From an uncultured bacterium (GTDB lineage Bacteria; Verrucomicrobiota; Kiritimatiellia; RFP12; UBA1067): a stretch of 64,000 nt of DNA. The stretch is taken from assembly GCA_942493055.1 (NCBI GenBank), contig OW818680.1, forward strand, positions 4,038,406 through 4,102,405, given 5' to 3'. The stretch's first letter is position 1; each line of letters begins with the position of its first letter. Below are positions 1-17,800 of this stretch, in pieces. Below the pieces are notes generated by a model that saw only the letters and a list, made by a program, of their open reading frames with translations, ran no database searches and was not told where the DNA came from. Made by a program: the position numbers and the translations under genes.

Positions 1-503
1 ATCGCCGGCACCATCGGTTCGTTCAGCGTCACCCAGTAATCGGGGAAGGCGCCCAACTCCTCGATCACGAAGGTCACGTAGCGCAGGAATTGGCTCACGG
101 TATCCGGATTCTGCCAGTCGCCCTGGGCGGCGACCCAGTGCGGGAGCACCCAGTGGTGCAGGGTGAGGCAGATCTTGAAGTTGTGATGACGAAGGGATTG
201 AAGGATCTTTCGATAATGCTCGATCGCGTCACGGTCGAAATGATCCTTCTGCGGTTCGACGCGGGCCCATTCGATACCGAGGCGGAACCCTTTGTAGGCC
301 AGTTTCGCCATAAGGGCATGATCCTCTTCGTGGCGGTTCCAGTAATCCATGCAGCGGCCCGAGACCGTTTTGTCCACGATGAACCCCTTTTGCTCCCAAG
401 CCCACCAGTCGGAAAATGCGTTGCCGCCCTCCACCTGGTGTCCTCCGGTTGAGGTGCCCCAGATGAAGTTTTCCGGAAAGTCCAGTCTGTCTCTTGGCAC
501 CAT
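1..503 (-). CDS. Glycoside hydrolase family 1 beta-glucosidase, N-terminal ~167 aa; the gene continues past the window start
   Basis: The reverse-strand translation begins MVPRDRLDFPENFIWGTSTGGHQVEGG...TLNEP (GH1 N-terminal signature and the acid/base TLNEP motif). ATG at 503-501. The listed + ORF 90..452 is the wrong strand and frame. Confidence 0.8.
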   Translation of the reverse strand, partial: MVPRDRLDFPENFIWGTSTGGHQVEGGNAFSDWWAWEQKGFIVDKTVSGRCMDYWNRHEEDHALMAKLAYKGFRLGIEWARVEPQKDHFDRDAIEHYRKILQSLRHHNFKICLTLHHWVLPHWVAAQGDWQNPDTVSQFLRYVTFVIEELGAFPDYWVTLNEPMVPA

Positions 504-674
504 GCGTCCTCCCTTACTCGCTTGATGGGGAACAGTGTACTGCGCGCGCTGCCCTTTCGCTATGGGGTGTAACCCTGCTGCGGAATAATTAGAAAGATAG
601 TGCCAACCCATGACTTGCGGAAGGGTGGTAATTATGGTACTTTCAAAACATAATATTCACTGAGGAAGTCTTTC

Positions 675-3611
675 ATGCAATTGGGATGGAATGAGATCAA
701 ACAGCGGGCAGTCCAATTCTCGCGCGAATGGGCTGGCGAGACCCGTGAAGATGCCGAAGCAAAATCCTTTTGGGAAGCATTCTTCAACGTGTTTGGCATT
801 CCTCGGCGGAGCGTCGCCACCTTTGAGGAACCCGTCCGAAAGTTCAACAATCAGTATGGGTATATTGACCTTTTCTGGAAGGGACGGCTCCTCGTTGAGC
901 ACAAGTCCCTCGGAAAAAGTCTCGATCAAGCCGAATCTCAGGCCTTCGACTATCTGCAATCCCTCGCCCGTGAAGGACGCCATGATGAAATCCCCCGGTA
1001 TGTGATCGTCACGGACTTTGATCGTCTCGCTCTCTTTGACCTCGAACCCGACGATGTACGCGATTTGCCTTTGTTTTGCGGTATGCATGTCCAGCGGGTC
1101 GAAATTCGGATAAAAGATTTGCATCGCCATATCCGCCTCTTTGGCTTTATTCCCGGTTATAAAGTTCGCACGTTTGGTCATGAAGACCCGATTAACATCA
1201 AGGCGGCAGAGGTCATGGGGCAACTGCACGATGCCATGAAAGCTGGGGGATACACTGGCCACGCATTAGAACGCTTCCTTGTCCGTATTCTTTTCTGTCT
1301 GTTCTCCGAAGACACCAACATTTTTGATCCGAATGCTTTTACGGAATACATCGAGAACGAGACGCGCCCGGATGGTTCCGATCTTGGGCTACACCTCGCA
1401 CGCCTCTTCCAGGTTCTAGACACCCCGCGTGAACAGCGCCAGAAGAACCTCGATGACCGACTGCTGAACATGCCTTACGTGAACGGCGGATTGTTTTCCG
1501 AGGTTTTACCTCTTGCCGAAATGAACACGGAGATGCGGAATGCGTTGGTGCGCTGTACGTGTTTCGATTGGAGCCGCATATCTCCCGCTGTCTTCGGTTC
1601 GCTGTTTCAGGCAATCATGTTGCCTGCGGAACGTCGCCAGATCGGGGCGCACTACACCTCCGAACGCGATATTCTCAAGTTGATACATGCCCTCTTTCTT
1701 GACGATCTGCGTATGGAATTTGAATCCATTAAACATGATCGCAAAAAACTCGCTGCTTTTCATCAGAAGCTGGGAACGCTCAAATTTTTCGATCCCGCTT
1801 GTGGTTGCGGCAATTTCTTAGTGATCACCTACCGCGAGTTGCGCCTTCTGGAATTGGACGTTCTCGACGCATTGGGTTATGGGGAACAGACCATTACCGA
1901 CATCTCGTTGCTGTCCCACGTAGACGTCGATCAAATGTTCGGCATTGAAATCGAGGAATGGCCAGCCCGCATTGCTGAGACGGCCCTCTGGCTGATGGAT
2001 CACCAAATGAACCTTCTGCTGGCCGAAAAATTCGGCAAATATTACGCCCGCCTGCCACTCACGAAAGCTGCCCGCATCTGTCATGATAACGCCTTGCGAC
2101 TCAACTGGCGCACTGTTATGAACCCTGCCGAATGCTCCTATATTCTTGGCAATCCACCCTTCGTGGGGGCAAAGTTCCAGAGCGATGAACAGCGAAAAGA
2201 CATGGAACTTATAGCAGGCAAGGTTAAAAATTATGGATTAATGGACTATGTGACGGCCTGGTACTTTAAGGCGGCGGAATTCATAAAGGATACACCGACG
2301 CGTGTCGGCTTTGTCTCCACTAATTCCATCACACAGGGGGAGCAGGTCGGCATTTTTTGGAATGCCATGTTTTCCAGAGACATAAAGATTATTTTCGGAC
2401 ATCGCACGTTTGTATGGCAGAGCGAAGCACGTGGCAAAGCCCATGTCCACGTGGTCATAATTGGGTTCGCGAATCAGTTCAGCGGGACGAAGCGTATTTA
2501 TGAAGATCATGAAGGCACATCCGTTGTTACGCAGGTTAAGAATATCAGCCCTTATCTCGTTGAGGGCTCTGATACGGTTATACTGAATCGATCATCCCCG
2601 CTCTGTTCTGTGCCTGGAATTGGCATTGGCAATAAGCCCATCGACGGAGGGAACTATCTTTTTACGCCTGCTGAAAAAGCAGATTTCCTGCGTACTGAAC
2701 CCTCAGCCGCACCCTATTTCAGACGGTGGCTTGGCTCGGAAGAGTTCATCAACGGCATCGAGCGGTGGTGTCTCTTACTGAAAGATTGTCCGCCTGACCA
2801 GTTAAGACGAATGCCGGAGGTCATCAAGAGAATTGAATCTGTCCGAAAGCTAAGACTTGAAAGCAAGAGTCTCCCAACGCAGAAACTAGCGGCAACCCCC
2901 ACACGTTTTCATGTCGAAAATTTTCCTGACGGTCCCTACTTGGTCGTGCCAGGGGTCTCTTCGGAACGCCGCCCCTACATACCCATTGGTTATGTGACAA
3001 ACGATATCATTGCCAGCAATCTATTGAACGTCATCCAAAACGCCACACTCTATCACTTCGGAATTCTCACGTCGTCCATGCACATGGCATGGGTGAGGCA
3101 AGTTTGTGGCAGACTGAAGTCCGATTACAGATATTCAAATAAACTGGTCTACAACAATTTCCCTTGGCCTCAGATGGATGTGTCCCCGCCGGAGGGAGTC
3201 ACGCCTTGCACCGATGCCGACTGTGTCAGGGAGGCTGCAGCGCGGACGTATTGGACTTCTTACCATGAAGGCAGCATAGAAGAGGAGGCGAAGGCCAGGG
3301 AGGGGCACAAGTCCGGACTCCTCAAGGGTGATGCGAAAAAGGTGGCCGACGTGGAGGCGAAGGCGCAGGCGGTACTGGACGTACGCGAGAAATATCCGCG
3401 CTCGACACTGGCCGACCTCTACGATCCCTTGACCATGCCGCCAGACCTCTTGAAGGCCCATGCCGATCTTGACCGAGCTGTTGACCGTTGTTATAGAACC
3501 GCTCCATTCACCTCCGACCGCCAACGCGTCGAATTTCTCTTCGCACTCTATGAGTCCCTGACCGCACCGCTTCTACCGGTAGAGAAGAAGGGACGAAAGA
3601 AAAAAAATTAA
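675..3611 (+). CDS. MmeI-like type IIL (IIG) restriction-modification enzyme: N-terminal PD-ExK endonuclease plus N6-adenine gamma-class DNA methyltransferase and target-recognition region
   Basis: The N-terminus MQLGWNEIKQRAVQFSREWAGETREDAEAKSFW is typical of the MmeI family. DLFWKGRLLVEHK gives D-x9-E-x-K. FFDPACGCGNFLV is SAM motif I and GNPPFVGAKF is motif IV (NPPF). RBS GAGGAAG precedes the ATG. Confidence 0.8.
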   Translation: MQLGWNEIKQRAVQFSREWAGETREDAEAKSFWEAFFNVFGIPRRSVATFEEPVRKFNNQYGYIDLFWKGRLLVEHKSLGKSLDQAESQAFDYLQSLAREGRHDEIPRYVIVTDFDRLALFDLEPDDVRDLPLFCGMHVQRVEIRIKDLHRHIRLFGFIPGYKVRTFGHEDPINIKAAEVMGQLHDAMKAGGYTGHALERFLVRILFCLFSEDTNIFDPNAFTEYIENETRPDGSDLGLHLARLFQVLDTPREQRQKNLDDRLLNMPYVNGGLFSEVLPLAEMNTEMRNALVRCTCFDWSRISPAVFGSLFQAIMLPAERRQIGAHYTSERDILKLIHALFLDDLRMEFESIKHDRKKLAAFHQKLGTLKFFDPACGCGNFLVITYRELRLLELDVLDALGYGEQTITDISLLSHVDVDQMFGIEIEEWPARIAETALWLMDHQMNLLLAEKFGKYYARLPLTKAARICHDNALRLNWRTVMNPAECSYILGNPPFVGAKFQSDEQRKDMELIAGKVKNYGLMDYVTAWYFKAAEFIKDTPTRVGFVSTNSITQGEQVGIFWNAMFSRDIKIIFGHRTFVWQSEARGKAHVHVVIIGFANQFSGTKRIYEDHEGTSVVTQVKNISPYLVEGSDTVILNRSSPLCSVPGIGIGNKPIDGGNYLFTPAEKADFLRTEPSAAPYFRRWLGSEEFINGIERWCLLLKDCPPDQLRRMPEVIKRIESVRKLRLESKSLPTQKLAATPTRFHVENFPDGPYLVVPGVSSERRPYIPIGYVTNDIIASNLLNVIQNATLYHFGILTSSMHMAWVRQVCGRLKSDYRYSNKLVYNNFPWPQMDVSPPEGVTPCTDADCVREAAARTYWTSYHEGSIEEEAKAREGHKSGLLKGDAKKVADVEAKAQAVLDVREKYPRSTLADLYDPLTMPPDLLKAHADLDRAVDRCYRTAPFTSDRQRVEFLFALYESLTAPLLPVEKKGRKKKN

Positions 3612-3619
3612 GTTGTCCG

Positions 3620-6600
3620 TTAATCTAAGTTTTTCAGCACGTTGTCCGGGTCGGTGTCGAGGAGGGGCCAGACGAGATGGCCTTGTTCTTGTTTTTCCAG
3701 ATCGTGGAAGGCGGTGTAGCGCAGGGCATTCGCATCGAGCCAGAGGATGATGGCGTGGCGGTCTTCGGGCTTGGTACGGGCTTGATGCGTCGGAGTCAGC
3801 AAGGCCTGGCCGATGCGCGACTGGAAGGCGCCGCAGCGTCCGGGGATGGAGCGCGAGCCGCCCGTGTTCTTTTCCATCGTGCTGCCTAAGAAGCCGCCGC
3901 CGAACCAATGCGCGTAGGGCCGCAAGCCTTCATAGCTCATGTCCTGCGGGCCTTTCTTCTCTTTCTGGTGGCAGCTCACGCAACGTTGCTCCATGATAGG
4001 CTTGATCTGAAGTGTGTAGCTGATCGGACCCTGGATATTGCATTCAGCCTCCAGTTTCTTTGCCTCGCGACGGAAGGCGATCGGCTGGATGCGCGTGCTG
4101 GGGTTGGCCTCTTGTTTGGACTCGTGGCACCCGATGCAGGTGAGCCGTTCCCCGGGATGCACGAACGCGGCAGAGCGCATGGTCTGGATGACCATGTTTT
4201 TTTCATCCACGACTTGGAAAATGAGCAGGCGTCCGGCAGGCGCTTCGAAATAGGCGCTGCCGTCTGTCTCGATAGGTGTTGTGCCTAATACGACGCGGGG
4301 CGTGTTCTCTTTGCCGTAACCGATATAGGGCTTGTCCATCCAGGGATCGTGCTTGGGGATAACCTGCAACACGCGAAGGCGCGTCGGCTTGCGATCTTTC
4401 GGGAAGGGCTGGTCAGTCACGTTGACGTTGATCACGCCGATGGTTGCACGCTGATCCGCCTCTCTGAAATCTTCGCCTTGCGCGGTGCGCTGAGGAATGG
4501 TCGGGGGCTTCGGCCGTGCGCGCAGGGGCTTGGGATGCGTCAGGCGCAGCCGCGGATCATAGCCGTCCAGGGGCAGGATCTCGCGTTCGCAGACCAGCTC
4601 CTCGTTCCCGTATTTATCCACCAGCACGAGATCTTCCCAGCGGTTGCAGATAAAGAGATCGTCCGTCACAGGCCAGGCTGTGCCATACTTGTAGTGCTGC
4701 CGCCCGGCGCATTCGCTCTCGGGCAGCGGTGAGTAGGGGGTGACGCGGCGCAATTGGCTGAAGTGATAATCGTCCTTGAGGCGCAAGTCGAGAATGCCGA
4801 GTGTGCCGAATGATTCTCCGTGATGCACGGAGAGTGTGGTGACGTAACGGCTGGAGTTGGGGAGCGACCGTGTATGCATCTCGGACATGGGCAAAGCGGA
4901 GGGCGCATCTTTACATCTGCCGAAACGATGGTCGCCATGTGTGTTGTCCTCGAAGGTGTGCCAGGGAAAGGGATAGTTGCCATGTGGCGCGCGCGGGTCG
5001 CGTCCATCGGGATAGGCGATCCAGAAGAGGCTGCCGAGGCAATCCTCGCGGTCGGTGTAGTCCCAGCGCGCATAGACCAGCATTCCGTTGTTGTCCACGC
5101 TGGGATGCCATTCGCTGGTTTCGTAATACGAGAGCGGATAGATGTCGCGTCCGTCATTCTTCATGCTGTGCAGCACAAACGTGGGGACGCGGAGGCGGGA
5201 CGGCTCTGTGAAGCAGCGGATGAATGCGCCGCGCCGCTCGGAGACAAAGACGACGCGGCCCGAGGGGAGTTCCGTCGGGTCGAAGTCGTTCCATGGACCT
5301 TCTGTCAGCTGCCAGATCTTTTTAGCCGCGATATCGAGTTTAAAAATGTTCCAGGTGGTCTCCTCGCTCCATTGCCAGACATGCTGCTTGGACGCGCAAT
5401 GTGCGAAGTAGACGGTCTGGCCGTCGTAACTTACTTCAGGTGACCAGAACGAGCCCTCTGTGATGGGCTTGCCTTGATATTTTCCGTTTTGAACGATCGC
5501 GTTGTCGAGCAGATTGCGCACACGGGGTTGCGCAGCGGTGAAGCCCTCGAGCACAAAAAGTCCACCGCCTTCAATCGTGTTAAAGCCGAAACATTGCGTC
5601 GCGAAATGACCGCCAGTCCGGTCTGTATTCGTCTTGCTGGTCAGCCGCGAGCCGGCATACGTGGCGCGACCGACGAAGAGCATGGAGTTATACGTTTTGA
5701 GTGCCGGGTCCGCCAGCATCACGACGCGTCGCAAGGCGCAGAGCACAAAGACATCCTGAGGCTTTCCAGCGGCCTTGATGCGGTTCAGATCCCGCTGCCA
5801 TTTTTCTGCGTCGGAATGCGCTTTGGCGAAATCAATCAACAATTGCGTTCTGCGCAGCATCACATCAAAGGCGGTCTTCTCCCCGGGCTGGATGAGGGAG
5901 TGTTTGTCGTAGACTTGATCCGCTGCGCCGCGGGGCAATGGCATGGCACCGGTGATTTGATCTTCAAGCTCCTTCACATATTCGGACCAGAAGGCAAGGA
6001 CTCCTGGACGGAACATCTCCGGCTTGAGGGACTCCAGTTGAAAGGAGGGGAGCACATCCAGCGTATAGGTCGCGACAGGAATATTTTTGGGTGGCTTGAC
6101 TCCCGGCGCATAGAGGTTCGCATGGCCTTCGGAGGGAAACAGGGCAGACAGATCCTCAGCCTCGGCCAGCTTTGCTTTTTCCAGCAGGCAGCCATTGACC
6201 TCGACATCGGTCACCTGTCCATCGCCTCGGAGCGTGCCCTCCACCAGCCTGCCGACACCGATCTTGTGATTGCTGGCTGTTACGGCTGGGCGGTTGTAGG
6301 GCGCTTCAGCGACTGTATTGCCATCCATGAGCAGGACAATCTTATCGCGTGTCCAGTTGACCTGTAGATCGTGCCACTGGTTGTCCGCGACAAGGGCGGT
6401 TGATCGGATCTCTGCCGGACGGTTGCCAGGAATATAAAACGACAATACGCCTGACTGGACATAGCTGTAGAGTTCCCAGTGTGCGCCGCTCTTCGGCTCA
6501 TACGCCACGAAGATATTAAACGCGGAACGGTTTGCCGTCTTGACGCGCGCCTTGAGTGTGAGCGGAGGATTCGCCATCTTCTCGTCTGCCGTTGCAAGAT

Positions 6601-6781
6601 AGCCTTGCGGCGTGCGGGGCGAGGTTTCTCCGGCATACAGCAGCGACGCGTCCCATTCCTGTTGATTGAGATTCTGGTTTTGCGTATAGATGCGCTTGCC
6701 GTGCGGGAGCAAGGATGCAGGCGTGTTCGTCACCGCCTGTGCGGTGATGCTGAGCAAGAGTGTTAGAAAAAAAAGTTTCAT
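3620..6781 (-). CDS. Secreted multidomain protein: signal peptide, ConA/LamG-like lectin domain, beta-propeller-like middle region, two C-terminal Planctomycete-type cytochrome c (CxxCH) domains
   Basis: MKLFFLTLLLSITAQA is a signal peptide. An N-terminal jelly-roll region follows (NQWHDLQVNWTRDKIVLLMDGN). The C-terminus has CIGCHESK and CVSCHQKEKKG...ILWLDANA, which resemble PSCyt-type heme-binding modules. Confidence 0.6.
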   Translation of the reverse strand: MKLFFLTLLLSITAQAVTNTPASLLPHGKRIYTQNQNLNQQEWDASLLYAGETSPRTPQGYLATADEKMANPPLTLKARVKTANRSAFNIFVAYEPKSGAHWELYSYVQSGVLSFYIPGNRPAEIRSTALVADNQWHDLQVNWTRDKIVLLMDGNTVAEAPYNRPAVTASNHKIGVGRLVEGTLRGDGQVTDVEVNGCLLEKAKLAEAEDLSALFPSEGHANLYAPGVKPPKNIPVATYTLDVLPSFQLESLKPEMFRPGVLAFWSEYVKELEDQITGAMPLPRGAADQVYDKHSLIQPGEKTAFDVMLRRTQLLIDFAKAHSDAEKWQRDLNRIKAAGKPQDVFVLCALRRVVMLADPALKTYNSMLFVGRATYAGSRLTSKTNTDRTGGHFATQCFGFNTIEGGGLFVLEGFTAAQPRVRNLLDNAIVQNGKYQGKPITEGSFWSPEVSYDGQTVYFAHCASKQHVWQWSEETTWNIFKLDIAAKKIWQLTEGPWNDFDPTELPSGRVVFVSERRGAFIRCFTEPSRLRVPTFVLHSMKNDGRDIYPLSYYETSEWHPSVDNNGMLVYARWDYTDREDCLGSLFWIAYPDGRDPRAPHGNYPFPWHTFEDNTHGDHRFGRCKDAPSALPMSEMHTRSLPNSSRYVTTLSVHHGESFGTLGILDLRLKDDYHFSQLRRVTPYSPLPESECAGRQHYKYGTAWPVTDDLFICNRWEDLVLVDKYGNEELVCEREILPLDGYDPRLRLTHPKPLRARPKPPTIPQRTAQGEDFREADQRATIGVINVNVTDQPFPKDRKPTRLRVLQVIPKHDPWMDKPYIGYGKENTPRVVLGTTPIETDGSAYFEAPAGRLLIFQVVDEKNMVIQTMRSAAFVHPGERLTCIGCHESKQEANPSTRIQPIAFRREAKKLEAECNIQGPISYTLQIKPIMEQRCVSCHQKEKKGPQDMSYEGLRPYAHWFGGGFLGSTMEKNTGGSRSIPGRCGAFQSRIGQALLTPTHQARTKPEDRHAIILWLDANALRYTAFHDLEKQEQGHLVWPLLDTDPDNVLKNLD

Positions 6782-6966: not shown

Positions 6967-8793
6967 CTACTGCACGAGGTAGCCCAGGTCGGCGAGCCGG
7001 CGGGTCACGAGGGGCAGATCGGTTTTGGAGATCGCGATCTTGAGCTTCTCCACCTTGAGCGTCTTTTCTTTCAGCAGGGGATCCGTGGAGAAGAGCTGGC
7101 GCAACCCCGGGGTGTTGGTCAGGTCGTACACCTTGTATTTGCTTTTGCACTTCAGCGCAACGACACCCTGACTCAGGTCGTCGAGAAAGTTCTGCCAGGC
7201 TGCGGGCGGCGTGGCGGAGATGTTGGACTTGAACTGTTCGATGCGCGCCTGGACCTGCGCATCGGTGATGCAGCCGTGCAGAAAGCTTTTGCGCGTCATG
7301 CGGAAGCAGCCGTCGGAGAGCTTCTCCATGAATTCGAGCAGGGAGAGTTCAGTGACCGGATCGATGTTGCGGCTCGTGACCGTCAGTCGGTCCGGATTCA
7401 GGAAGACCTCCGCGTGTTGACGCTGCTCCCGATTCAGGGTGACCTCGTCCGTCTGCTTGAACGCATACGCGCCGAGGGGTGTGAGGCGCAGGGCAAAGAG
7501 CCCATCCCACGCGGTCAGGAACTCCTCGCCGTCACGCTGCCACGTGGGATGCGTCGGTAGTGAGTAGGCGATTTCGGCGAACCCCAGTGCAGCCAACAGG
7601 AAGGCCGTGCCCTGCAAAAGCGGGGTTATCAGGAAGTCTTGTTGGGTCTTGACAGTCAAGTCGACCTTTCGATGCGTGACGCGACGACCATATTCATTTT
7701 TGTGATCCACGGTCACGCGGCAATGCGGATGGTAGAACAGGTCGAGTGAAATCTCGCGATAGTGTTGATACTTGAGCAGGTTATCGGCGGTCACCCAGCC
7801 CGAGGAGCTGAGCTTGGAGAAGATGGCCCAGAGGGGCATCGGCTTCTCTTTCTGATAATCGTAGCCCATCCGTGTACCGCTTAAATGGCTCAGCAGGACG
7901 TCGTGAAAAAAACGTGTTTTCGTGAAGGCTTCCGCGAGGAAATCGCGTAGGATCACTGCGGGGTCGGGCGGTTCGGACAACATGGCACGCCGGATTTTAT
8001 CGTCGCAGCTTGCGAGCAGGTTGACTAAGAGTTCGGTACGCAGCAACGACAGTTGGGGTGAGTCGCTCGCAACGGGAAAGAATTCGCCGCCTCGGGTGAA
8101 TTCACTCACCGCACGCAGACAGCTCTTCTTGAGACTCCCGTTGCCGATGTACTGCAGATGGCCGCGGTGGATATAATCGGCGACCATGCGCAAATCCTCT
8201 TGGATCGTCTCGTCGCAGCGATACGTCCGCAGGCCTTCAGGAAGCCGCTCGACAGGCTCGAAGGTGTACCCCTTGGGCGTAGGAACGATCTTTCGCAGGC
8301 AGGCGCGTAGCGCGGGAGGCAGCCGTACGACCACGACATCCTTCGGAAATCGACGACTATACTGATAGTAGCTGCCTGGATCAAGCGCGATGAGGGGAAA
8401 CTCAGTCTTCGCCTTCGTCTCCTCGTATGAAATGTCATACTGGATATTGGGTTTGATTGTTTGGGTGTCGGTGATCAGGAAGCCGACCTCTGCTTCCACC
8501 CTCAGGAGCGGAAGGTCGCCAGCCCACGCGAGTAGCGCAAGCACCTTCTGCACGTCTGGAGCAAGAGCCTGGAAAAAGCGCTTTCCGTCGGTCACGGAGT
8601 TGAGCACCCTGACAATCGCGTTGACCATCACGTCCTTGCGGGGAATCCGTTCCAACTTTGGCTCGCCCAAAATCGGGCCCGCAATCTTATCATACAGCGC
8701 CCAAAGCTCGCTATTCTCGTAATATCGTTGGAGGACTTCTGCCAGTGGGGCCCCAAACTGTTTTGGATTTCCCATATCCGCGCTCGCATTCAT
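6967..8793 (-). CDS. Hypothetical 608-aa protein with no recognisable domain; translationally coupled partner of the upstream SNF2 helicase
   Basis: Long ORF with its own GGGGAG RBS, starting 4 nt after the helicase stop. No SWIM CxCxnCxH motif, no nuclease or NTPase motif found by eye. Confidence 0.7.
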   Translation of the reverse strand: MNASADMGNPKQFGAPLAEVLQRYYENSELWALYDKIAGPILGEPKLERIPRKDVMVNAIVRVLNSVTDGKRFFQALAPDVQKVLALLAWAGDLPLLRVEAEVGFLITDTQTIKPNIQYDISYEETKAKTEFPLIALDPGSYYQYSRRFPKDVVVVRLPPALRACLRKIVPTPKGYTFEPVERLPEGLRTYRCDETIQEDLRMVADYIHRGHLQYIGNGSLKKSCLRAVSEFTRGGEFFPVASDSPQLSLLRTELLVNLLASCDDKIRRAMLSEPPDPAVILRDFLAEAFTKTRFFHDVLLSHLSGTRMGYDYQKEKPMPLWAIFSKLSSSGWVTADNLLKYQHYREISLDLFYHPHCRVTVDHKNEYGRRVTHRKVDLTVKTQQDFLITPLLQGTAFLLAALGFAEIAYSLPTHPTWQRDGEEFLTAWDGLFALRLTPLGAYAFKQTDEVTLNREQRQHAEVFLNPDRLTVTSRNIDPVTELSLLEFMEKLSDGCFRMTRKSFLHGCITDAQVQARIEQFKSNISATPPAAWQNFLDDLSQGVVALKCKSKYKVYDLTNTPGLRQLFSTDPLLKEKTLKVEKLKIAISKTDLPLVTRRLADLGYLVQ

Positions 8794-8797
8794 ACGC

Positions 8798-11596
8798 TTA
8801 CTCCCCTAATAAATGTTCAATGTCGGCTTCGGTCAGGACCTTCAGCGCGGCGCCGTCGCTGGAGACGATCTGGTCGACCAGCTCCCGCTTGCGTTGCTGC
8901 AGCGCCATGATCTTCTCCTCGATCGTGTCCTTGGCGATCAGGCGGTAGGTGAAGACGGTTTTGCTCTGGCCGATGCGGTGCGTACGGTCGATGGCTTGGG
9001 TTTCGGCGGAGGTGTTCCACCACGGGTCGAGCACGAAGACCGTATCCGCCGCAGTCAGGTTGAGCCCAACCCCGCCCGTCTTGAGCGTCATCACAAAGAC
9101 CTTGAGGCGCGGGTCATTCTGGAACCGCTCCACCAACTGCTGCCGGTTGGATGTGGCGCCGGTCATGGTGAGATGCTCGATCGCCTCTTCGTTCAGCGCC
9201 TCGGAGACCTGCTCGATCCCTGCCAGGAAATTCGTGAAGACGAGGCATTTGCGATTGTTCAGCACCGCCTCCTTGAGGGTCTCCATCAGGATCTCCCGTT
9301 TGGCGGAGACGATCAGGCCGTCGCTCTTCGATTCCGGCACCGTGGCGATCTGCCGCAGTTCCAGCAGGGCCTCCAGCACGACGAAGCGGCTTTGCGCCAG
9401 CCCCTTCCGCTCGATCTCGCCCTTGATTAATTCCTGATAGAAGCGGCGGCGGGATTCGTAGAAGCGCTTCTGCTCCACGCCCATCTCCGCATAAAGGACC
9501 TGTTCGATTTTCGGCGGCAGCTCCTTGAGCACGTCCGCCTTGAGGCGGCGCAGGATAAAGGGATAGATCTTGCGCCGCAGCTCGTGCGCGGCGTCCTTGT
9601 CGCCTGTGCGTTGGATCGGCTGCACGTAATCGCGCTCGAACTCGTTTCCGGAGCCGAACATCGTCGGATTCAGGAAGCGGAAGAGCGTATAGAGTTCGCC
9701 CAGGTTGTTCTCGATCGGCGTGCCCGAGAGGGCGAGACGGAAGGTGCAGGTGAGCGCCAGGGCCGCCTTGGCCGTCTGCGTGGTCAGGTTCTTGATCGCC
9801 TGCGACTCATCCAGGATCACCGCGTGGAAGGGAACAGCCGCAAAAAGCTCAATGTCCGAGCGCAACATCCCGTAGGTGGTCAGGACGATCTGATGCTTCC
9901 GGGCCTCGTCCATGTTGCGGTCATCCGCGTAGTAGGTGTAGACCGTGAGTGTTGGACAGAAGGTCTCCAGTTCGCGCCGCCAGTTGAAGAGCAGGCTGCG
10001 GGGCATCACGATCAGCGACACGCCCTTCTCGTCCGGGTAGAGGCGCGAAAGGAGCGCGATCGCCTGGATAGTCTTGCCCAGCCCCATGTCATCCGCTAGG
10101 CAACCCCCCAGCCGATGTTCATGCAGATAGTCCAGCCACTTGACGCCATCTGTCTGGTAGGGGCGCAGCGTCCCGACGAAGCGGGGCAGCGTCAACGGTT
10201 TCGCACTCAGCGCATTGAACCCCTTGAAGATCTCCCGCGACTTCGGGAGGGCCGCCCGTTCCGCGCTGTCCTCCATAAGCGACTCGATGAGCGGCAAGTC
10301 GAAGAAGGAGATGCGCACGCCCTGTTTCTGCTTCTTGAAGAGGCGCGCGAGCTTTGCCATGTAATCCGCATTGAGGACCGCATGGTTGCCATCCGACAGC
10401 GCCACATACGACTGCTTGCGATACTGCTGCAACACCTCGAACAACGAAAAGCGTTCGCCGTCCAGGTCCAGGCTGGCCTCGCCTTCCAGGAAGTCGATCC
10501 CGTGGCCGAGCGACACGCTGAGCTTGGGCTGCATATACTTGACCTTGTACTGCTTCAGCTTCTCCGCGCCGAACAGCTCAAAGTCGTGGATCAGTTCCGC
10601 CAGATGGCCATGGAGAAATTCGGCGGCGAGATCCGGCCCCAGCACCAGCCCCTCCTCGTCGTCGATCAGATAGGCGTCCGAGGACTTCAGCGCGCGCGAC
10701 AGTTTCTGGATCCGCTTCAGGAGTTCGGAGCGGGCGAGCAGCATATCGCCATACTCCACCTCGCGCACACGGATCACCTGCTCCATGTCATCCACAAACG
10801 CCACCCGTCCGATATCGTAATCCCGGACAAACTCGAGCGGCAGTCCCGGCAACACGAGTGACACTTCCACGTGAAGGGCGGCATGCTCATCCACCTGCTG
10901 GAAGATCAGCGCCGGGCGCGCCTTCACCGGGTCGCCCGTCTGCACAGCATAATCACGGTAGGAGACCCGCACATTCGAGAAGGAGGAGAACAGCAGCGTC
11001 AGGCACTCATTCAGGCGCGCCTCGGGAAAGGCGTCTTCAAACAGGGGGATCGTCCGGAAGGCCGTGCCCAGCGGCTTCACGAGATAAACCGTGCGGTCGA
11101 AGAGCAGGTGGGATTCGGACACCATCGACGGATGCTTCAGCGGCACTGCCGGCGCATCCTCCGAACGGAGCATCAACTGGCCGCGCACCCAGCCCTCCGC
11201 TGGCGTCAGCTCCAGCGCCACCTCCATCAGGGTTTCACAAAACGAGAGCGGTTGAAATTTGTGGTCCACCACATGCTCACAGCGTGCCAGCAGCCAGAGC
11301 AGATGACTGTGCTCCGCCAACTGCACGCCGTCCTCTTCGTCCTCCTCGTCCCAGATGACCTTGTCGGCACGTTGCGCCCGGGCCGACTCAAGCGCCTTGA
11401 GCAGTTCCCGTTGCGGCCCGCAGAACGCACGATAATCGGCATCCACCTCAGCGCCCTGGCGATTGACCACACGAAGGGTGCATCCCTCTTCCTTCGCCTT
11501 CACTTGAAAGAAAAGTTCCTGCGGTGTCCCTCTTCGGGTGGTGCCTGCCGCGCCCTCCACACTCCGCAACGCCTCAAAGAGGCCCAATCGCTTCAT
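8798..11596 (-). CDS. SNF2-family (SF2) helicase/ATPase with a ~450-aa N-terminal bacterial SNF2-associated-type extension
   Basis: LRPYQTDGVKWL...DDMGLGKTIQAIAL is the Walker A / motif I region. DESQAIKN is motif II. A C-terminal helicase domain follows (VFVLDPWWN...QAIDRTHRIGQ). The catalytic core begins about aa 470. Confidence 0.85.
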   Translation of the reverse strand: MKRLGLFEALRSVEGAAGTTRRGTPQELFFQVKAKEEGCTLRVVNRQGAEVDADYRAFCGPQRELLKALESARAQRADKVIWDEEDEEDGVQLAEHSHLLWLLARCEHVVDHKFQPLSFCETLMEVALELTPAEGWVRGQLMLRSEDAPAVPLKHPSMVSESHLLFDRTVYLVKPLGTAFRTIPLFEDAFPEARLNECLTLLFSSFSNVRVSYRDYAVQTGDPVKARPALIFQQVDEHAALHVEVSLVLPGLPLEFVRDYDIGRVAFVDDMEQVIRVREVEYGDMLLARSELLKRIQKLSRALKSSDAYLIDDEEGLVLGPDLAAEFLHGHLAELIHDFELFGAEKLKQYKVKYMQPKLSVSLGHGIDFLEGEASLDLDGERFSLFEVLQQYRKQSYVALSDGNHAVLNADYMAKLARLFKKQKQGVRISFFDLPLIESLMEDSAERAALPKSREIFKGFNALSAKPLTLPRFVGTLRPYQTDGVKWLDYLHEHRLGGCLADDMGLGKTIQAIALLSRLYPDEKGVSLIVMPRSLLFNWRRELETFCPTLTVYTYYADDRNMDEARKHQIVLTTYGMLRSDIELFAAVPFHAVILDESQAIKNLTTQTAKAALALTCTFRLALSGTPIENNLGELYTLFRFLNPTMFGSGNEFERDYVQPIQRTGDKDAAHELRRKIYPFILRRLKADVLKELPPKIEQVLYAEMGVEQKRFYESRRRFYQELIKGEIERKGLAQSRFVVLEALLELRQIATVPESKSDGLIVSAKREILMETLKEAVLNNRKCLVFTNFLAGIEQVSEALNEEAIEHLTMTGATSNRQQLVERFQNDPRLKVFVMTLKTGGVGLNLTAADTVFVLDPWWNTSAETQAIDRTHRIGQSKTVFTYRLIAKDTIEEKIMALQQRKRELVDQIVSSDGAALKVLTEADIEHLLGE

Positions 11597-11868
11597 ACTC
11601 GCTCCTCACGTGTTATCAAAAAAAATTTGGGTTCCATTGTAGCTGAGAGCGTGCCAGTTTGGCGACTCCTTTTTGATCGCCATCGCGAAGTGATAGGGGG
11701 TTCCGCGGGGGACAAGGGCCAGCATTCGGCATCGTTCAAAAGTGCACAGAAAATAATCCCAAGCGCGTAAATTTTTTTTAAGGCGTTTTCTTTTTGACTT
11801 ACTGGGTAATTGTGCTAACATTGTTCGCAAGTGTGGATTCGAAGTGAAGAAATAAAAAGAGGTGTGTT

Positions 11869-14800
11869 ATGAAAAAAACTATGTTTGCATTAGTGGTATC
11901 TATTGCTGTATTCATTACAGCCATTCCGTGTTTGGCCCAGGCTCCAAGAATCAGGATCATGCCGTTAGGCGATTCCATCACCTACGGTGCCAACAGCGAC
12001 GGCATCGGCGGAGGCTACCGCTATCCGCTCTATGTTGCGCTGACCAACGCGGGCTATAATGTCGATTACATCGGAACCCAGACCTCCATTCCTCACGCCG
12101 GCCTCGGCGCGGAGATCAACCACGAGGGACACAGTGGCTGGCATGTTTCCGCCGCCAGCAACGGCCTTTACGAGAACATCCTCACCTGGCTCTCTCAGAT
12201 CGACGTCCCCGATGTGGTCCTCGTCCATATCGGCACGAACGACACTGGCGACGCTCCGAACTTCCCAGGAACCATCAACGAACTCGACGCGCTCATCACC
12301 CGCATCGCCGCAGCCCGCCCCTACGCGCACATCATCGTCACCACCCTGCTGAAACGCGGCACGAACGACTCGGACTCAAAATACGTCCTGATCAACACCT
12401 ACTTCAACCCGTTCGTCGCGGGCATCGTCCAGGCGCACCAACTGGCGGGCCGCCGCGTACACTTCCTCGACATGCATGCCTACCTGGAACGGACAGACAT
12501 GTACGACAACCTCCACCCGAACAACGTCGGCTACGGAAAGATGGCCGCCGCGTGGTTCCCTGCCATCACCAACATCGTCTCCCCTTACGGTGACTTCGTC
12601 CCGCCCGCCGTCTCCACGGTCAGATATGCATCCGCGAATACGCTTTCCGTCACGTTCTCGAAACCCATCGACCTCGCCGCTTCCTCTGCTGTCACCAACC
12701 CTGCCGCATGGGGTGTCTCCCCCGCAGGTGTGGTCGCCGCCGTCTCCGCGCTCTCCTCCGACCTGCGCAGCATCACGCTCACCGTTTCCGGAGTACTCCC
12801 GAACATCGTTTCGACGCTCTCCTTTAACGGCTCAATCACCGACCTCGTGCCTGCTTCAAGTGGGGGTCCCTTCACTGCCACGTTCTCCGGCGCCGTCGGC
12901 GCGTTCGCCACGCCCGGCATCGGGCGCTACTGGACGGGTCTCGGACCCGACGTGCTCTGGGGTACAGCGGCCAACTGGTCGGACAACCTGCTCCTTGGCC
13001 TCGCGACTGCTGTCTTCTCCGGCAGCGGCAATGGCAAGAGCACCGTATCCCTCGGTGCCGCTAACGCGATAGTGTCCCATTCCTCCAACATCATGTTCGC
13101 CCCGGACGCTACGGCCTACACGCTCGGCCTCCCGGGCCAGACACTCTCCCTGCCCGCCGCACGTATCACGCTCGAAGCCGGTTCCGTCAACAACCAGACG
13201 GTCGCCGCCACCCTCCTCCTCGGCGGCAGCCTCGACATCTACAACAACGAGCCGTCCAAGCGTCTTACCCTCAATTACACCAACAATACCGCGCGTAACA
13301 TCTATGTTTACGGCACCGGCCCTGTCACTTTTGACACTCTCCGCCGCCCCGCCGGTTCCGAACTCTCCAACAACAACCCCATCGAGCTTCACCTCCGCTC
13401 CCCCGGCACCGTCACCTGTACCGGGCCCATCACCCTCGGCACCCTCTGGAAAGACAACAACTATCTGCCCAGCGAACTCATCCTCGCCCCGCACACCACC
13501 AACATCATCTGCCGCGACAACTGGGATTTCGCCCTTTCAGGTGCCACTATTTCCGGCGGCGAAGGCACTGTTCTGCGCCTCGCCCGCGTCCAGGTGGGCG
13601 TCCCCGCCGCCATCGCCCTCCAGACCGCCAACCCGGTCACCATCTCCTGCCGCCTCGAATGCCCATCAGGCCTCGCGACCCTGAATAACGGCGGCGGCGG
13701 CTGGGTCAACGGCACCCTCGTCCTGACCTACCCCGACAACGACATCCCCGGCAACATCACCTTTGACCGCGGCAACTGCCTCCAGGTCCCCTTCGTCGCG
13801 CCCAACGGCACACCGAACCCCCTCGGTTCTTCGCCGACCATCAATTTCATAAATCCGCTTAACGGCACCCCCGCCCGCCTGCGCGTCACCTCCGCAGTAC
13901 CGTCCTCCGCGGATAAGGCGTTCACCGTCGAGAAAGACCGCGCCGCCATCCAGAACGCCGGTTCTGGCACCCTCACCCTGTCAGGCCCGATTTCCGGTAA
14001 CGGCTCGGTCGTTTTCGAGGCTACTGCTGGGAACATCGTGTATTCCGGCATCCGGTCCGGTGCAGGCGGCATCACCAAGGAGGAACCCTTCGGGCTTACC
14101 CTCTCCGGCCCGAACACCTCTACTGGTCCGCTCACCCTCTCAGCCGGTGCGACCACCCTCTCCGGCGCATGGGCCGGCCCCGCGACCCTCGCGGCTAATT
14201 CCTCGCTTGACATCTCCGGCACGCTCGCCAGTAACCTCACCCTCAACGCCGCCGCCTCGCTCTCCGGCACGGTCAGCGGAGCGGTCATGGTCAATGCCGG
14301 TGCCGCGCTCACCGTCCTGCCCGGCGCCAGCCTCTCCGGCCCGTCGGTTATCCTCAGTGGCAGCACCCTGGCCCTCAACCCCGCCGCTGCGGACAGCTTC
14401 ACGCTCGCCCTCCCGGCCCTTGTTGTCACCAACGCCAACGCCTTCCTCTCCGTTTCTGCTGCAGCGACGGCCTCCGCCGTCACGATCTCCAACCTCACCC
14501 TCAACAACAAGACCCTCCTCGTTTCGGCTCCCGCCGCCGGCACCGCGCGGAACCGCATCTTCATCACCGGCCTCGCCACCGGCCCGGCCAGCGGCATCCT
14601 TCTCAACGGCCTGCCTGCTGCATACAGTGACAGCGACGGCCTTTACCCTGCCGCCAGCACCCTTCCCCCCGTCGCCGTCACCGGCGAACAGATCCCGAAT
14701 GCCCCCGGCTCTGCCGCCACGGTCTCCAACGCGCCTGCCTCCACCTTGACGCTCGCGCAGCCCTCTGTCACCCTTGGCCAGCTCGATTACGCCGCACCTA

Positions 14801-17800
14801 CTTCTGGCGTTCTCGACCTTGGCGGCGGTGTCCTCGGCGTCTCTAATCTCATCGTATCCGGCGCGGCCCTCACCGTCAGTAACGGCACCCTCACCGCCTC
14901 AGCCGCGCCCCATACGAACGCCTTCTATTCCGGCATCAACCAGCCGCGGATCGACATTTTCACTGACGATGCCTCCACAGAAATCTCTTCATCAAAAACC
15001 TACACCCACCTCCTGGATCCCGGTCTGGCCGTCGACACCGTCGCCGTCATCAACGGTGTGACCTTCACCAAGATCACAAACAACACCACCTACACCGACC
15101 CCGGCACCGGTTTCGGCTGGTCCGGGATTCCTGCCGGATCCCACCACGAAAACTTCCCTTCCGGCTGGACCAACACCATCCCGCGTCCCGCCGGCGACGG
15201 TCTCTACAATCTCATCAACGGCATGGGGTATGCCGGCTACAATATGACGATCACCCTCTCCGGCCTCACCCCCGGCGCCGTCTACGAGTTCCGCGCCTAC
15301 GGCCGCGAATGGGACAACTTCCCCACCGCCATCGACCGCACCCACGTCTGGACCTTCTACACCACCTCCAACGCAGCGCCCGTCGTCTCCTTCTCCTTCG
15401 ACCAGAACCATACGCCGCCCCACGCCCTGACCCTGCGCTACGTCGCCGCCTCGGACAAGCTCACGGTCAAAACGTGGCGCGTCAACGTCACGGGTAACCC
15501 AGACCCCGGGATCTACGGCATCACCAACGAGAAGATCGCAGACGCCCCTGTTGGCGCGGACGTCTCTCCCGCCACGCTCACGCTCTCTGCGTCGGACGGC
15601 GCGCTTACCGCCGCCGCCGCTGTTGGCGACCCCGCCCGTCCCGTTTCGCTGATCACCTCCGGCGACGTGACGCTTGAAGGCCCTGCCACAATCCTCGGCA
15701 CCACCCTCTTCTCGCAGGACCTTGCTCTGGCCCCATCCACTGCTGGCACCACGCAGTATCTCGGCGGCGCGGTCTCCGGTTCTGGAGCCCTCGTCAAATC
15801 CGGCCCTGGCAGCGCCGTCCTCCTCGCCGCGAACGCCTATCCCGGCGGTACCGCCGTCTCCGGCGGCATCCTGAACGGCGGCACATCCACGTCCTTCGGC
15901 ACCGGGCCTGTCAACGTCCTCTCTGGTGGCGCTGTGGGTCTCGCCGATGTCCTGCTCAACTCAATCACCTTCCTCAATGTTTTCACCATCGCCGGTTCCG
16001 GTCCGGACGGCCTCGGCGCCCTGCGTAACGACACGACTGCGCTTCAGTACAACGCCTTCAAATACGTCACCCTCTCAGATGACGCCACCATCGGCGGGGG
16101 GACCTCCTACGGCCCCTCCATCCCTCTTGGCTCGATTCTTGGCCAGAATGTCGAGCAAGGCCGTTTCGACATCCGCAACGGCACGCTTGACTTCGGTGGA
16201 CACTCTCTCACAAAAGCGGGTAACTCCGCCTTCATCCTCACGTCGGACAGAATCTTAGGCGTGACTGACGACACCGACGTCGACGTGACCGGCGGCACTT
16301 TCGGCATGGAAGTCTCCACCGACCTCGGTGGCTCTGCAGCCAACACGCTCACCCTCCGTTCCGGCGCGGCCTTCGATTTCTTCAACCTCACCACCCCGAT
16401 CCGCTGGTCGCTCCTTGCCGAGAATGGTGCGCACATCTCCACCCGATCCGGGAACTCCGCCCAGAACAACTGGGCCGGCCCTGTCACCATCCAGTCCGGT
16501 ACCGTCACCCTCGACGGACCCAACAACGTCACCTTCTCCGGCCCGATATCCGGCGCGGGCGGCTTCGTCCAAGGCTCAGGCACCACCTACCTGCGCAATC
16601 CCACCAACACCTTCACAGGCTCGACCACTGTCACAGGCGGAAGCCTCTATACTTCGTATGACGGCACGATCCCCAATCCCGTCGGCTTCACCCTCTCCGG
16701 TGGCACGTTCTATGCCTATCTCGGCGATGGTGTGGATCCTGCCAAGGGATGGACCTCCGCAGGAATCAACGACCTTGTGACGCAAGGCGCAATCACCGCA
16801 GGCGACGGACCGGCCTTCTCGCTTGACGCCACTCCATACGCCGCCGCCATTGACGGCGCGCTGCCCTCCTGCCGCATCCGTAAATATGGCACCAATATCC
16901 TGATCCGCAGCGCCGACACGCCATCCCCCGGCATTCTCTACGTCCACAACGGCATCATCGAACTCACGTCCGGTCTCTGGGACGCTGCAGCCAACAACAA
17001 GGCCTTCTACGTCGGCGCCGAGAACAACTCCAATTATCTCGCAGTCGCCAGACTCACCGGCGACGCCGCCTTCCGCCATCGCGACACGGGTTACAATCTC
17101 TCCGGTTCTTATACCATCGTCGGCGACGGGACCAGTTCCAGAGGTATCCTCACCATCGGCAGCAACGCCTCCTACGCCGGACGCCTCTACGCCGGCAACA
17201 GCGCGGCCGCAGCCGGAGCCGTTTACCAGACCGGCGGCACGGTCCTCGACTTCGGCGGGTCCGGCTCGGACTCCCGCTTCGGTTACTCCGGTTTCGGCTA
17301 CCTCGACATCACGGGCGGGTCCTTCACGACCAAGGGCTACACCCAGTTCGGCCACCAGTCCAACTCCTACGGCACCCTCCACATGACCGGTGGAACCTTC
17401 ACTTTCAACTCCGGCACCGTCCCTGCCCAAGGCGTTGTCGGCGACTATTACGGCGGCACCCTCGCCACGCGCTCTGGCAACGGGCACCTCTTCCTCGAGG
17501 GCGGCAGCCTCACCACCGGCTCCACCTACATCCAGCTCCCCGAGAACCAGACACAGGACGCCCCGCTCTCCGCCATCCTTACCGTCGGCGGCGACGCCAA
17601 TGTCTCCACAGCCTGGCTCCTCACCGGCAACTACGAGAAGAACGTCCCGACCTCCATCGTCAACCTCAATGGCGGACGCTTCTCCACAGGCTATATCCAG
17701 AAAGGCAGCGGCACCGGCAACTCCGCCAACAACGCCAACGCCCAGACCTACATCAACTTTAACGGTGGCGAACTCGCCCTCACCGCCCCGGGTGCCATAG

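Follow-up and report, generated by a model that had tools for sequence, protein, structure and literature searches.

We suggest that two adjacent genes in a 64,000-nt stretch of DNA from an uncultured bacterium of the class Kiritimatiellia (contig OW818680.1 of assembly GCA_942493055.1, positions 4,038,406 to 4,102,405; hereafter the window, with coordinates counted from its first letter) encode a two-subunit motor, in which a scaffold resembling p52/Tfb2, a subunit of the TFIIH complex, would clutch and regulate an SNF2 translocase in the course of a chromosomal DNA transaction. This is the reading that we favour on balance, with modest confidence. The pair of genes itself is a dedicated, strictly co-conserved and previously undescribed module, found in several bacterial phyla.

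Both genes are located on the minus strand. The upstream gene (8798..11596) codes for an SNF2-family ATPase of 932 aa, identified from its open reading frame (ORF) and translation, from Pfam matches and intact motifs, and from the presence of an orthologue upstream of the partner in related loci. It consists of an N-terminal domain (aa 1-470, 10187..11596), which is beta-rich, divergent, SNF2_assoc-like and specific to this orthologue group, and of an ATPase core with two RecA-like lobes (aa 476-876, 8969..10171), delimited by Pfam and by motifs I, II, III and VI. The downstream gene (6967..8793) codes for the partner, a predicted p52/Tfb2-like multi-domain protein of 608 aa. Its N-terminal module (aa 1-440, 7474..8793) is a helical and winged-helix-like array, which behaves as a variable mosaic cassette in the clade of the window, and its C-terminal module comprises aa 441-608 and the stop codon (6967..7473). 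Together with aa ~385-440, the latter forms the most conserved part of the protein, and we infer that it contains clutch-like and C-terminal domain (CTD)-like domains.

At the junction (8794..8806, minus strand, as read from the sequence), the TAA stop codon of the SNF2 gene (8800-8798) is followed by a 4-nt spacer, GCGT (8797-8794), and by the ATG of the partner (8793-8791), while a GGGGAG Shine-Dalgarno motif (8806-8801) lies within the final SNF2 codons. The ribosome-binding site inside the end of the SNF2 coding sequence and the spacer of only 4 nt amount to an arrangement for translational coupling. A preliminary description of this DNA, made from the sequence alone, had placed a 932-aa SNF2 ORF 4 nt before a 608-aa ORF with its own ribosome-binding site, which is exact. 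The intergenic region 5' of the SNF2 gene is 272 nt long (11597-11868) and contains a possible sigma-70-like promoter (TCGCCA-18-TACAAT, 11636..11665, minus strand), a weak candidate with 9/12 matches that comes from a consensus scan only.

That the two genes belong together can be seen from 19 distinct related loci (L001, L003, L005-L008, L010-L013, L015-L021, the P0004 contig and L004, the last of which is uninformative on adjacency, its upstream gene being cut after 75 residues by a contig end). Wherever the upstream gene is intact, it is an SNF2 gene of 899-940 aa on the same strand as the partner, and it directly adjoins the partner in all of them but two (L007 and L008). The upstream SNF2 protein keeps the same ~470-aa N-terminal domain in all loci with DNA sequence (18/19), and partner identity across the related loci ranges from 64% down to ~22%. 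In most loci, the two genes are separated by 0-5 nt or overlap by 4 nt; the gap widens to 21 nt in L018 and 189 nt in L021. All-against-all clustering of the ORFs from 15 loci left the SNF2 and partner families as the only ones common to all. The functional pair that the preliminary description had assumed is thus borne out by co-conservation in all loci with an intact upstream gene, down to a partner identity of 22-25%. A locus search with a narrow alignment had returned six loci, including one false positive, L014 (Candidatus Acidoferrum), where the protein found belongs to a phosphoesterase family and no SNF2 gene is nearby.

Phyla with the pair include Kiritimatiellota, Verrucomicrobiota, Bacteroidota and Fusobacteriota, in addition to unnamed metagenomic lineages. 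The named sources are Pontiella, Verrucomicrobiota metagenome-assembled genomes (MAGs), Chondrinema litorale (Bacteroidota) and Fusobacterium vincentii. The last two are the two cultured carriers outside the Planctomycetes-Verrucomicrobia-Chlamydiae (PVC) group, and in C. litorale the genes are annotated as 'DEAD/DEAH box helicase' and 'hypothetical protein'. In L007 (5107-6340), two tandem near-identical genes of ~200 aa, with a weak DUF8196 match and a repeated 'FQETD(R/K)KFQETD' N-terminal motif, separate the SNF2 gene from an 871-aa variant of the partner. In L008 (6771-10350), a single SNF2 gene is followed by two tandem partner paralogues of 594 and 596 aa; judging from this gene arrangement, the partner could act as a dimer, which would there be a heterodimer.

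The motor has an intact ATPase core, in which Pfam recognises SNF2-rel_dom at aa 480-752 (E=1e-65) and Helicase_C at aa 766-876, and motifs I (GLGKT505), II (DESQ596), III (SGTP624) and VI (QAIDRTHRIGQ867) are all preserved. This core is 53-62% identical to those of the orthologues from Fusobacterium, Bacteroidota and other distant sources. As to the N-terminal extension, which the preliminary description had assigned to the 'SNF2-associated type', a Pfam scan of the whole protein gave no match to PF08455 (SNF2_assoc). The isolated N-terminus scored 20.8 bits (E=2e-4; aa 292-422 on profile positions 190-313) against a cut-off of 27, and 5/10 SNF2 orthologues matched the family (best E=1.3e-7). 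The assignment therefore survives as a sub-threshold match of the isolated domain and of half of the orthologues, and fails in the whole-protein scan; the kinship of the helicase with SNF2_assoc (YwqA-type) helicases is remote at best. Searches with the SNF2 N-terminus gave 11-12 mostly fragmentary proteins, and the alignment behind its AlphaFold2 (AF2) model is therefore shallow (13 sequences). This model showed no clutch-like structural match, hhalign detected no similarity between the partner family and the SNF2 N-terminal family when a shared clutch-like domain was sought, and a profile search of PDB sequences with the N-terminal alignment (A5) gave chance-level matches only.

Searches against PADLOC gave strong matches of the SNF2 core to DpdE (416 bits) and ZorD (344 bits), which reflect the generic core only. 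Assignment to any of the named SNF2 proteins was rejected on NCBIfam scores: ZorD (233.8 vs cut-off 1500), DrmD (99.4 vs 950 and 47.6 vs 610), DpdE (61.8 vs 500) and RapA/HepA (PRK04914, 19.7 bits vs 576).

The partner, by comparison, is a protein without a name. Pfam, NCBIfam, PADLOC and PHROGs contain nothing that matches the window partner significantly, and nothing significant emerged when 33 and 65 of its homologues were compared with the same libraries, in agreement with the earlier statements that the 608-aa protein shows no recognisable motif and that the module is a candidate undescribed one. A SWIM partner was considered and rejected, as the window partner has no CxCx(n)CxH motif, and no SWIM Pfam match was seen in it or in its homologues; the pairing is indeed atypical in lacking this motif, as had been noted before. 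Eight Cys residues occur in the partner, and only C508 is near-invariant across the family. A word-indexed protein search retrieved 42 homologues of ~600 aa, with Pontiella and Verrucomicrobiota as named sources. An exhaustive search with a hidden Markov model extended the family to 1,810 clusters at 50% identity (E<=1e-3), of which 795 reach E<=1e-30, with source names including Lentisphaerota, Verrucomicrobiota, Desulfococcaceae and 'Proteobacteria' MAGs.

Most family members are ~600 aa long, while a subset of ~860 aa (e.g. P0072, P0100 in L015, and P0122) carries a ~260-aa N-terminal extension, which suggests an extra protein-interaction module; HEAT-repeat models match 12/65 sampled members. 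Of the best 150 family representatives, whose lengths are ~600 or ~860 aa, none appears to be a Rosetta-stone fusion of partner and SNF2. Conservation peaks at aa 401-440 and 561-608, which fits a C-terminal part docking on the motor; the secondary structure of the model would place these segments in the clutch-like and CTD-like regions. Gly, Pro, aromatic and aliphatic residues make up the conserved positions, without a catalytic constellation. The 'unknown effector' of the preliminary description is not what we find: the partner carries neither a nuclease nor any other effector domain, and its predicted fold is that of a p52/Tfb2-like scaffold. In the limited library of literature that we searched, nothing relevant emerged on bacterial p52/Tfb2 homologues, on PF13625 or on an SNF2 protein with an XPB-like partner, and there was no description of this pair.

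The resemblance to p52 comes from structure prediction. An AF2 model of the partner, based on a 33-sequence alignment, has a mean pLDDT of 85.5 and a pTM of 0.78. When it was compared with the PDB using Foldseek, ranks 1-9 were all occupied by TFIIH p52/Tfb2 chains (among them 8ebu_D, 6nmi_D, 7o4i_2 and 7egc_4), with alignments of ~620 columns and a best match to 8ebu_D (E=3.5e-5, prob 1.0). XPB chains also match the model with their N-terminal regions (8ebu_A and 7lbm_W, prob 1.0), over ~170 columns and with prob 0.96-1.0. The crystal structures 6tru_B and 6trs_B match its N-terminal and C-terminal halves, respectively, and both the Tfb2 CTD and Tfb5 match its small C-terminal alpha/beta domain. 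The p52/Tfb2 chains and XPB were ranked first by two independent structure-comparison methods. The joint match is expected because the XPB N-terminal domain (NTD) shares its fold with the p52 'clutch'; in TFIIH the two pair up as a pseudo-symmetric dimer, by which XPB is recruited (PMC6422496). p52 consists of an NTD, two middle domains (MD1 and MD2, the latter being the clutch) and a CTD, and p52/p8 both activates and limits the ATPase of XPB (PMC7708078). At the level of the predicted model, the partner shows a collinear p52-type fold, with a winged-helix-rich NTD and MD1, an MD2 'clutch' and a CTD, and includes a clutch domain with the fold of the XPB NTD. A pointer in the same direction, independent of our model, is a UniRef cluster name, 'Helicase XPB/Ssl2 N-terminal domain-containing protein', under which the homologue from Pontiella is listed.

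Several observations weigh against a p52-like partner. Pfam Tfb2 and Tfb2_C are absent from the window partner and from sets of 33, 65 and 10 homologues, even at E values of up to 1-10. Among the 65 members, only weak matches to PF13625 (3/65, E>=0.016) and XPB_DRD (1/65, E=0.058) were seen. The partner alignments A1 and A2 give no TFIIH chain when compared with PDB sequences; profile searches of these sequences with A1, A2 and A5 stay at chance level (GH57 at E=0.006 and TnpB at E=0.55). No p8/Tfb5-like small gene accompanies the pair, and the resemblance to p52 holds at the level of chains and segments. To this can be added the mosaic, fast-diverging N-terminal module described below, which is unusual for a plain housekeeping factor.

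These points could be accommodated if the partner were an accessory subunit of YwqA/HelZ-type (SNF2_assoc) helicases that replaces the SWIM protein, with a convergent or generic likeness to p52, so that the XPB-p52 mechanism would not apply. The sub-threshold SNF2_assoc matches in the motor, the lack of sequence similarity to Tfb2 and the low TM-scores (0.17-0.22) are all consistent with such convergence. Low TM-scores are nevertheless to be expected because the partner is a flexible multi-domain protein, and the agreement between the two structure-comparison methods, together with the separate matches of both crystallised halves, of the Tfb2 CTD and of Tfb5, argues for more than a generic likeness. 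In addition, the NTD, MD1 and MD2 of p52 have no significant structural homologues according to Kappenberger et al. (PMC7708078), and a chance match over the full length is therefore unlikely. We consider convergence improbable, and retain the two-subunit motor with a p52-like partner as the preferred interpretation.

The N-terminal module of the partner has a history of its own. Between the window and L003, a metagenomic relative, the SNF2 gene is 93-97% identical at the nucleotide level; at the start codon of the partner, identity falls sharply to 50-72% for ~1.3 kb, and it returns to 85-97% in the last ~450 nt of the gene. In terms of protein, the SNF2 sequences are 96% identical (synonymous divergence dS 0.18-0.25, dN/dS 0.08-0.10), partner aa 1-440 are 52% identical (dS 0.84-1.33, dN/dS 0.37-0.44), and partner aa 441-608 are 90% identical (dS 0.28, dN/dS 0.21). 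The higher dS means that the N-terminal segment is of much older coalescence and has not just evolved faster as a protein. L003, L019 and L020 are alike in this respect, the N-terminal 440 aa of their partners being 47-59% identical within operons whose SNF2 proteins are 84-96% identical, with dS in the module 3-7x that of SNF2. The 5' breakpoint of the divergent segment coincides with the start codon and the 3' breakpoint is near aa 440-490. Identity matrices of the N- and C-regions are incongruent; P0002 and P0004, for instance, have 83% identity in the N-region and 77% in the C-region, whereas the window partner and P0003 share 90% in the C-region and 52% in the N-region. The simplest reading of these comparisons is that divergent alleles of the N-terminal segment have been exchanged by recombination in the clade of the window, and such an exchanged module would fit a specificity or adaptor role.

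Because the N-terminal module is mosaic and hypervariable in this clade, a conflict-related role is conceivable. In its full form, this explanation takes the pair for an undescribed anti-phage or anti-mobile-element system with an SNF2 engine, in which the exchangeable winged-helix cassette serves as a sensor or specificity module in an arms race. SNF2 motors are part of DISARM, Zorya, Dpd and BREX, whose PADLOC models are matched by the core; restriction-modification (RM) genes are found within a few kb of the pair both in the window (MmeI) and in Fusobacterium (DpnII, Mrr), the pair in L005 adjoins UvrD-PD-(D/E)xK and WYL genes, and L021 has NACHT/STAND, VapB and RES genes nearby. At the same time, the partner has no PADLOC match, the SNF2 protein matches only the generic core and stays far under the NCBIfam cut-offs for ZorD, DrmD and DpdE, and the module lacks a nuclease, toxin, methylase or other effector domain. 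The N-terminal module is no outlier in the Pontiella clade (SNF2 87%, N-region 78%, C-region 82%). No relative turned up in phage records, nor any match on a mobilisable plasmid, and companion genes of DISARM, Zorya, Dpd and BREX systems were not seen in the window or in related loci. A recurrent defence neighbourhood or a patchy mobile distribution was not encountered in the 19 loci, a small sample without enrichment statistics. Flanking genes are mostly of a housekeeping kind and differ from locus to locus, and the synteny of the Pontiella-type loci is conserved. We therefore regard a dedicated defence function as unlikely, albeit worth keeping in view, and a clutched motor in chromosomal DNA transactions as the better account of the pair.

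The MmeI-like gene deserves separate consideration, as its proximity underlay the earlier proposal of a defence island. It is located at 675..3611 on the plus strand and is complete, with matches to PF20464, PF20465, PF20473, PF20466 and PF20467 (E from 1e-24 to 6e-91) covering all five MmeI domains (N, helicase spacer, methyltransferase, target recognition and C), and PADLOC identifies it as REase_MTase_IIG with 1154 bits. It ends 3.36 kb from the partner gene, as the preliminary description had correctly reported (a complete gene 3.3 kb away). It has been conceivable that the pair and this type IIG enzyme make up one restriction or defence locus, for which proximity on the same contig is the only argument. 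The interval holds an unrelated 1053-aa LamG/HZS_alpha/cytochrome-c-like gene (3620-6781, minus strand), and the MmeI-like gene is convergent to both this gene and the pair. L003 aligns collinearly with the window (85-92% nucleotide identity) and retains a glycoside hydrolase family 43 (GH43) gene, the pair, the LamG/HZS gene and a GH1 gene, but lacks the whole MmeI segment as well as a giant PATR gene.

Window positions 3618-4815 align with L003 13235-14432 and window positions 1-583 with L003 14490-15072. This alignment gap identifies the MmeI-like gene as a strain-specific insertion of ~3 kb (window 584-3617) between two conserved genes, LamG/HZS_alpha and GH1 (the 3' part of which is window 1-583), which are adjacent in L003. 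As no MmeI-family gene adjoins the pair in other related loci either, cooperation between the pair and the MmeI-like enzyme is effectively refuted, and the link between them is coincidental. The defence-island claim does not hold for the window, where MmeI is a strain-specific insertion separated from the pair by the LamG gene, and where the rest of the DNA carries sulfatases, GH43, esterases and PATR. The preliminary description had also allowed for a divergent SWIM-type partner of a housekeeping YwqA-like helicase, with conserved synteny and outside defence islands. As far as context is concerned, this is close to what we observe, namely no defence-island link, housekeeping-type surroundings and conserved Pontiella-type synteny; the partner itself is no SWIM relative.

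On the other flank of the pair there are genes for a 3045-aa GDSL-lipase/PATR surface protein, GH43, an AAA_14/DUF4143 ATPase, a DUF3795 protein, two sulfatases and an esterase, and the gene content of the window is that of a polysaccharide-degrading Kiritimatiellota-like organism. The 3045-aa ORF (11869-21006, plus strand) combines an N-terminal GDSL lipase, a Big_5 domain and PATR repeats; its GC content of 0.63-0.66 and GC skew of -0.21 to -0.28 are unlike those of other window DNA, and relative to L003 it represents an insertion of ~9.3 kb between GH43 and SNF2. The 1053-aa protein has a hydrophobic signal-peptide-like N-terminus, Laminin_G_3, a middle domain of the hydrazine-synthase-alpha type and C-terminal CxxCH motifs; in its L003 orthologue (12123-14430), ~676 nt are missing (window 4816-5490), and gene calling splits it into two overlapping genes. 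The AAA_14/DUF4143 gene (24329-25492, minus strand) is within ~13 kb of the pair, and a gene of the same type is found ~4.5 kb 3' of the pair in Pontiella sulfatireligans (L001 16375-17730), a recurrence that is probably coincidental.

In the related loci, the flanks include YggS and ProC upstream and a conserved 270-aa gene downstream in four Pontiella-type loci, FBP aldolase in L005, an aldo-keto reductase in L006, ATP sulfurylase in L015, CysS in L016, and dnaE in L017, where it lies on the same strand two genes downstream in a tightly packed arrangement. L017 originates from Fusobacterium vincentii SB055 (NZ_CP084075.1, 643740-661467), a record labelled as a 2.1-Mb 'plasmid' with one annotated feature and evidently of chromosome size. 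There, a metallo-beta-lactamase-fold gene upstream, the pair, a 122-aa gene and dnaE (DNA polymerase III alpha) downstream share one strand, and past dnaE there are a DpnII-type RM system, an Mrr-like nuclease and another methyltransferase. In L005 (10106-15524, a Verrucomicrobiota MAG), the pair is followed by a 1011-aa UvrD-helicase/PD-(D/E)xK gene, a WYL regulator and a Macro-domain gene, which could represent a DNA-damage or defence context.

We propose the following working model. The operon would be co-translated and its products would assemble into a two-subunit DNA motor. One subunit would be a double-stranded DNA (dsDNA) translocase of the SNF2 type, with a lineage-specific N-terminal domain distantly akin to SNF2_assoc. 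The other would be a non-enzymatic partner whose predicted architecture parallels that of p52/Tfb2, in the order of a helical and winged-helix-like array, a domain with the XPB-NTD/p52 'clutch' fold and a small alpha/beta domain similar to the Tfb2 CTD and Tfb5. By analogy with XPB-p52-p8, the conserved C-terminal third of the partner may dock on the motor and set its ATPase and translocase activity, and the N-terminal array may recognise the target, either DNA or another protein. The complex, by the same analogy, could be engaged in clearing RNA polymerase (RNAP) or other protein roadblocks, in repair or in replication-associated remodelling, and would not act together with the MmeI-like enzyme. 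The physical interaction, the identity of the docking domain, ATPase regulation and the biological process are the parts of this model that we infer.

A bolder version can be entertained only tentatively. The p52/Tfb2 architecture has so far been regarded as particular to eukaryotic TFIIH; this version would see a large and old bacterial family that shares it, always wired to an SNF2 motor through a constant C-terminal docking unit and provided with a strain-swapped N-terminal specificity cassette, in other words a programmable motor, possibly used in surveillance or defence, and a candidate prokaryotic root of XPB-p52-p8.

Bacterial SNF2 ATPases beyond RapA and the members of defence systems are almost unstudied. 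One of them is now seen to have an obligate and widespread partner family (~1,800 clusters at 50% identity) without a domain-database name. If the p52-like fold is true, it offers a concrete mechanism, in which the partner clutches and tunes the motor and supplies target specificity, and it would be the first hint of TFIIH p52 architecture beyond eukaryotes, with a bearing on the origin of XPB-p52-p8. The replacement of the N-terminal cassette between near-identical strains could indicate specificity switching or a conflict-driven function. Since there are cultured carriers (Fusobacterium vincentii, Chondrinema litorale and Pontiella sulfatireligans), genetics and biochemistry are feasible.

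YwqA-type helicases are usually paired with SWIM proteins. They resemble the system described here in being ~900-aa SNF2 proteins with a long N-terminal extension, to which ours is weakly related through PF08455, and in having an adjacent accessory gene in a non-defence chromosomal context. They differ in that the PF08455 match of our protein is sub-threshold and that its partner is large, has a different predicted fold and lacks the SWIM motif. YwqA itself is poorly characterised and has been grouped with RNAP-interacting translocases (PMC7385302). DrmD of DISARM, ZorD of Zorya, DpdE of Dpd and BrxHII of BREX share the SNF2 core, as evident from its strong PADLOC matches. This likeness is limited to the generic core, equivalog scores are low, companion genes are missing and the nuclease domain of ZorD is absent here. 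RapA/HepA is likewise a chromosomal bacterial SNF2 protein with N-terminal accessory domains and a plausible functional analogue as a remodeller of roadblocks or RNAP, despite the very low NCBIfam score (19.7 vs 576); we know of no dedicated operon partner of RapA.

Among superfamily 2 (SF2) helicases, the archaeal XPB-Bax1 complex is similar in that the translocase has a dedicated partner by which its ATPase is modulated (PMC13024598). Bax1, however, is an XPG-related nuclease bound to the ThM and HD2 of XPB, whereas the partner described here has no nuclease signature and another predicted fold. According to a recent review, archaea have no TFIIH-like assembly, and the function of archaeal and bacterial XPB is elusive (PMC13024598). 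The XPB-p52(Tfb2)-p8(Tfb5) unit of TFIIH offers the most extensive parallel: an SF2 dsDNA translocase is combined with a non-enzymatic multi-domain partner, the predicted fold of our partner matches p52/Tfb2 over both halves and also the XPB NTD, itself of the clutch fold of p52 (PMC6422496), and its C-terminal third, equivalent to the p52 region that binds and regulates the motor (PMC7708078), is the most conserved. On the other hand, the motor here is of the SNF2 and not the XPB/Ssl2 type, and its N-terminal domain is not clutch-like, so that the XPB-NTD/clutch pseudo-dimer has no counterpart; homology to Tfb2 is not detectable by sequence, neither a p8-like gene nor any other TFIIH subunit is present, and the partner is bacterial, operon-encoded and 608 aa long, compared to 434-453 modelled residues in human p52 chains. 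In its working mode, the pair is probably closest to XPB-p52-p8, without being a component of TFIIH. We conclude that it represents a bacterial SNF2 helicase provided with an accessory subunit of its own, and that its structural link to TFIIH, predicted from the model, is potentially far-reaching.

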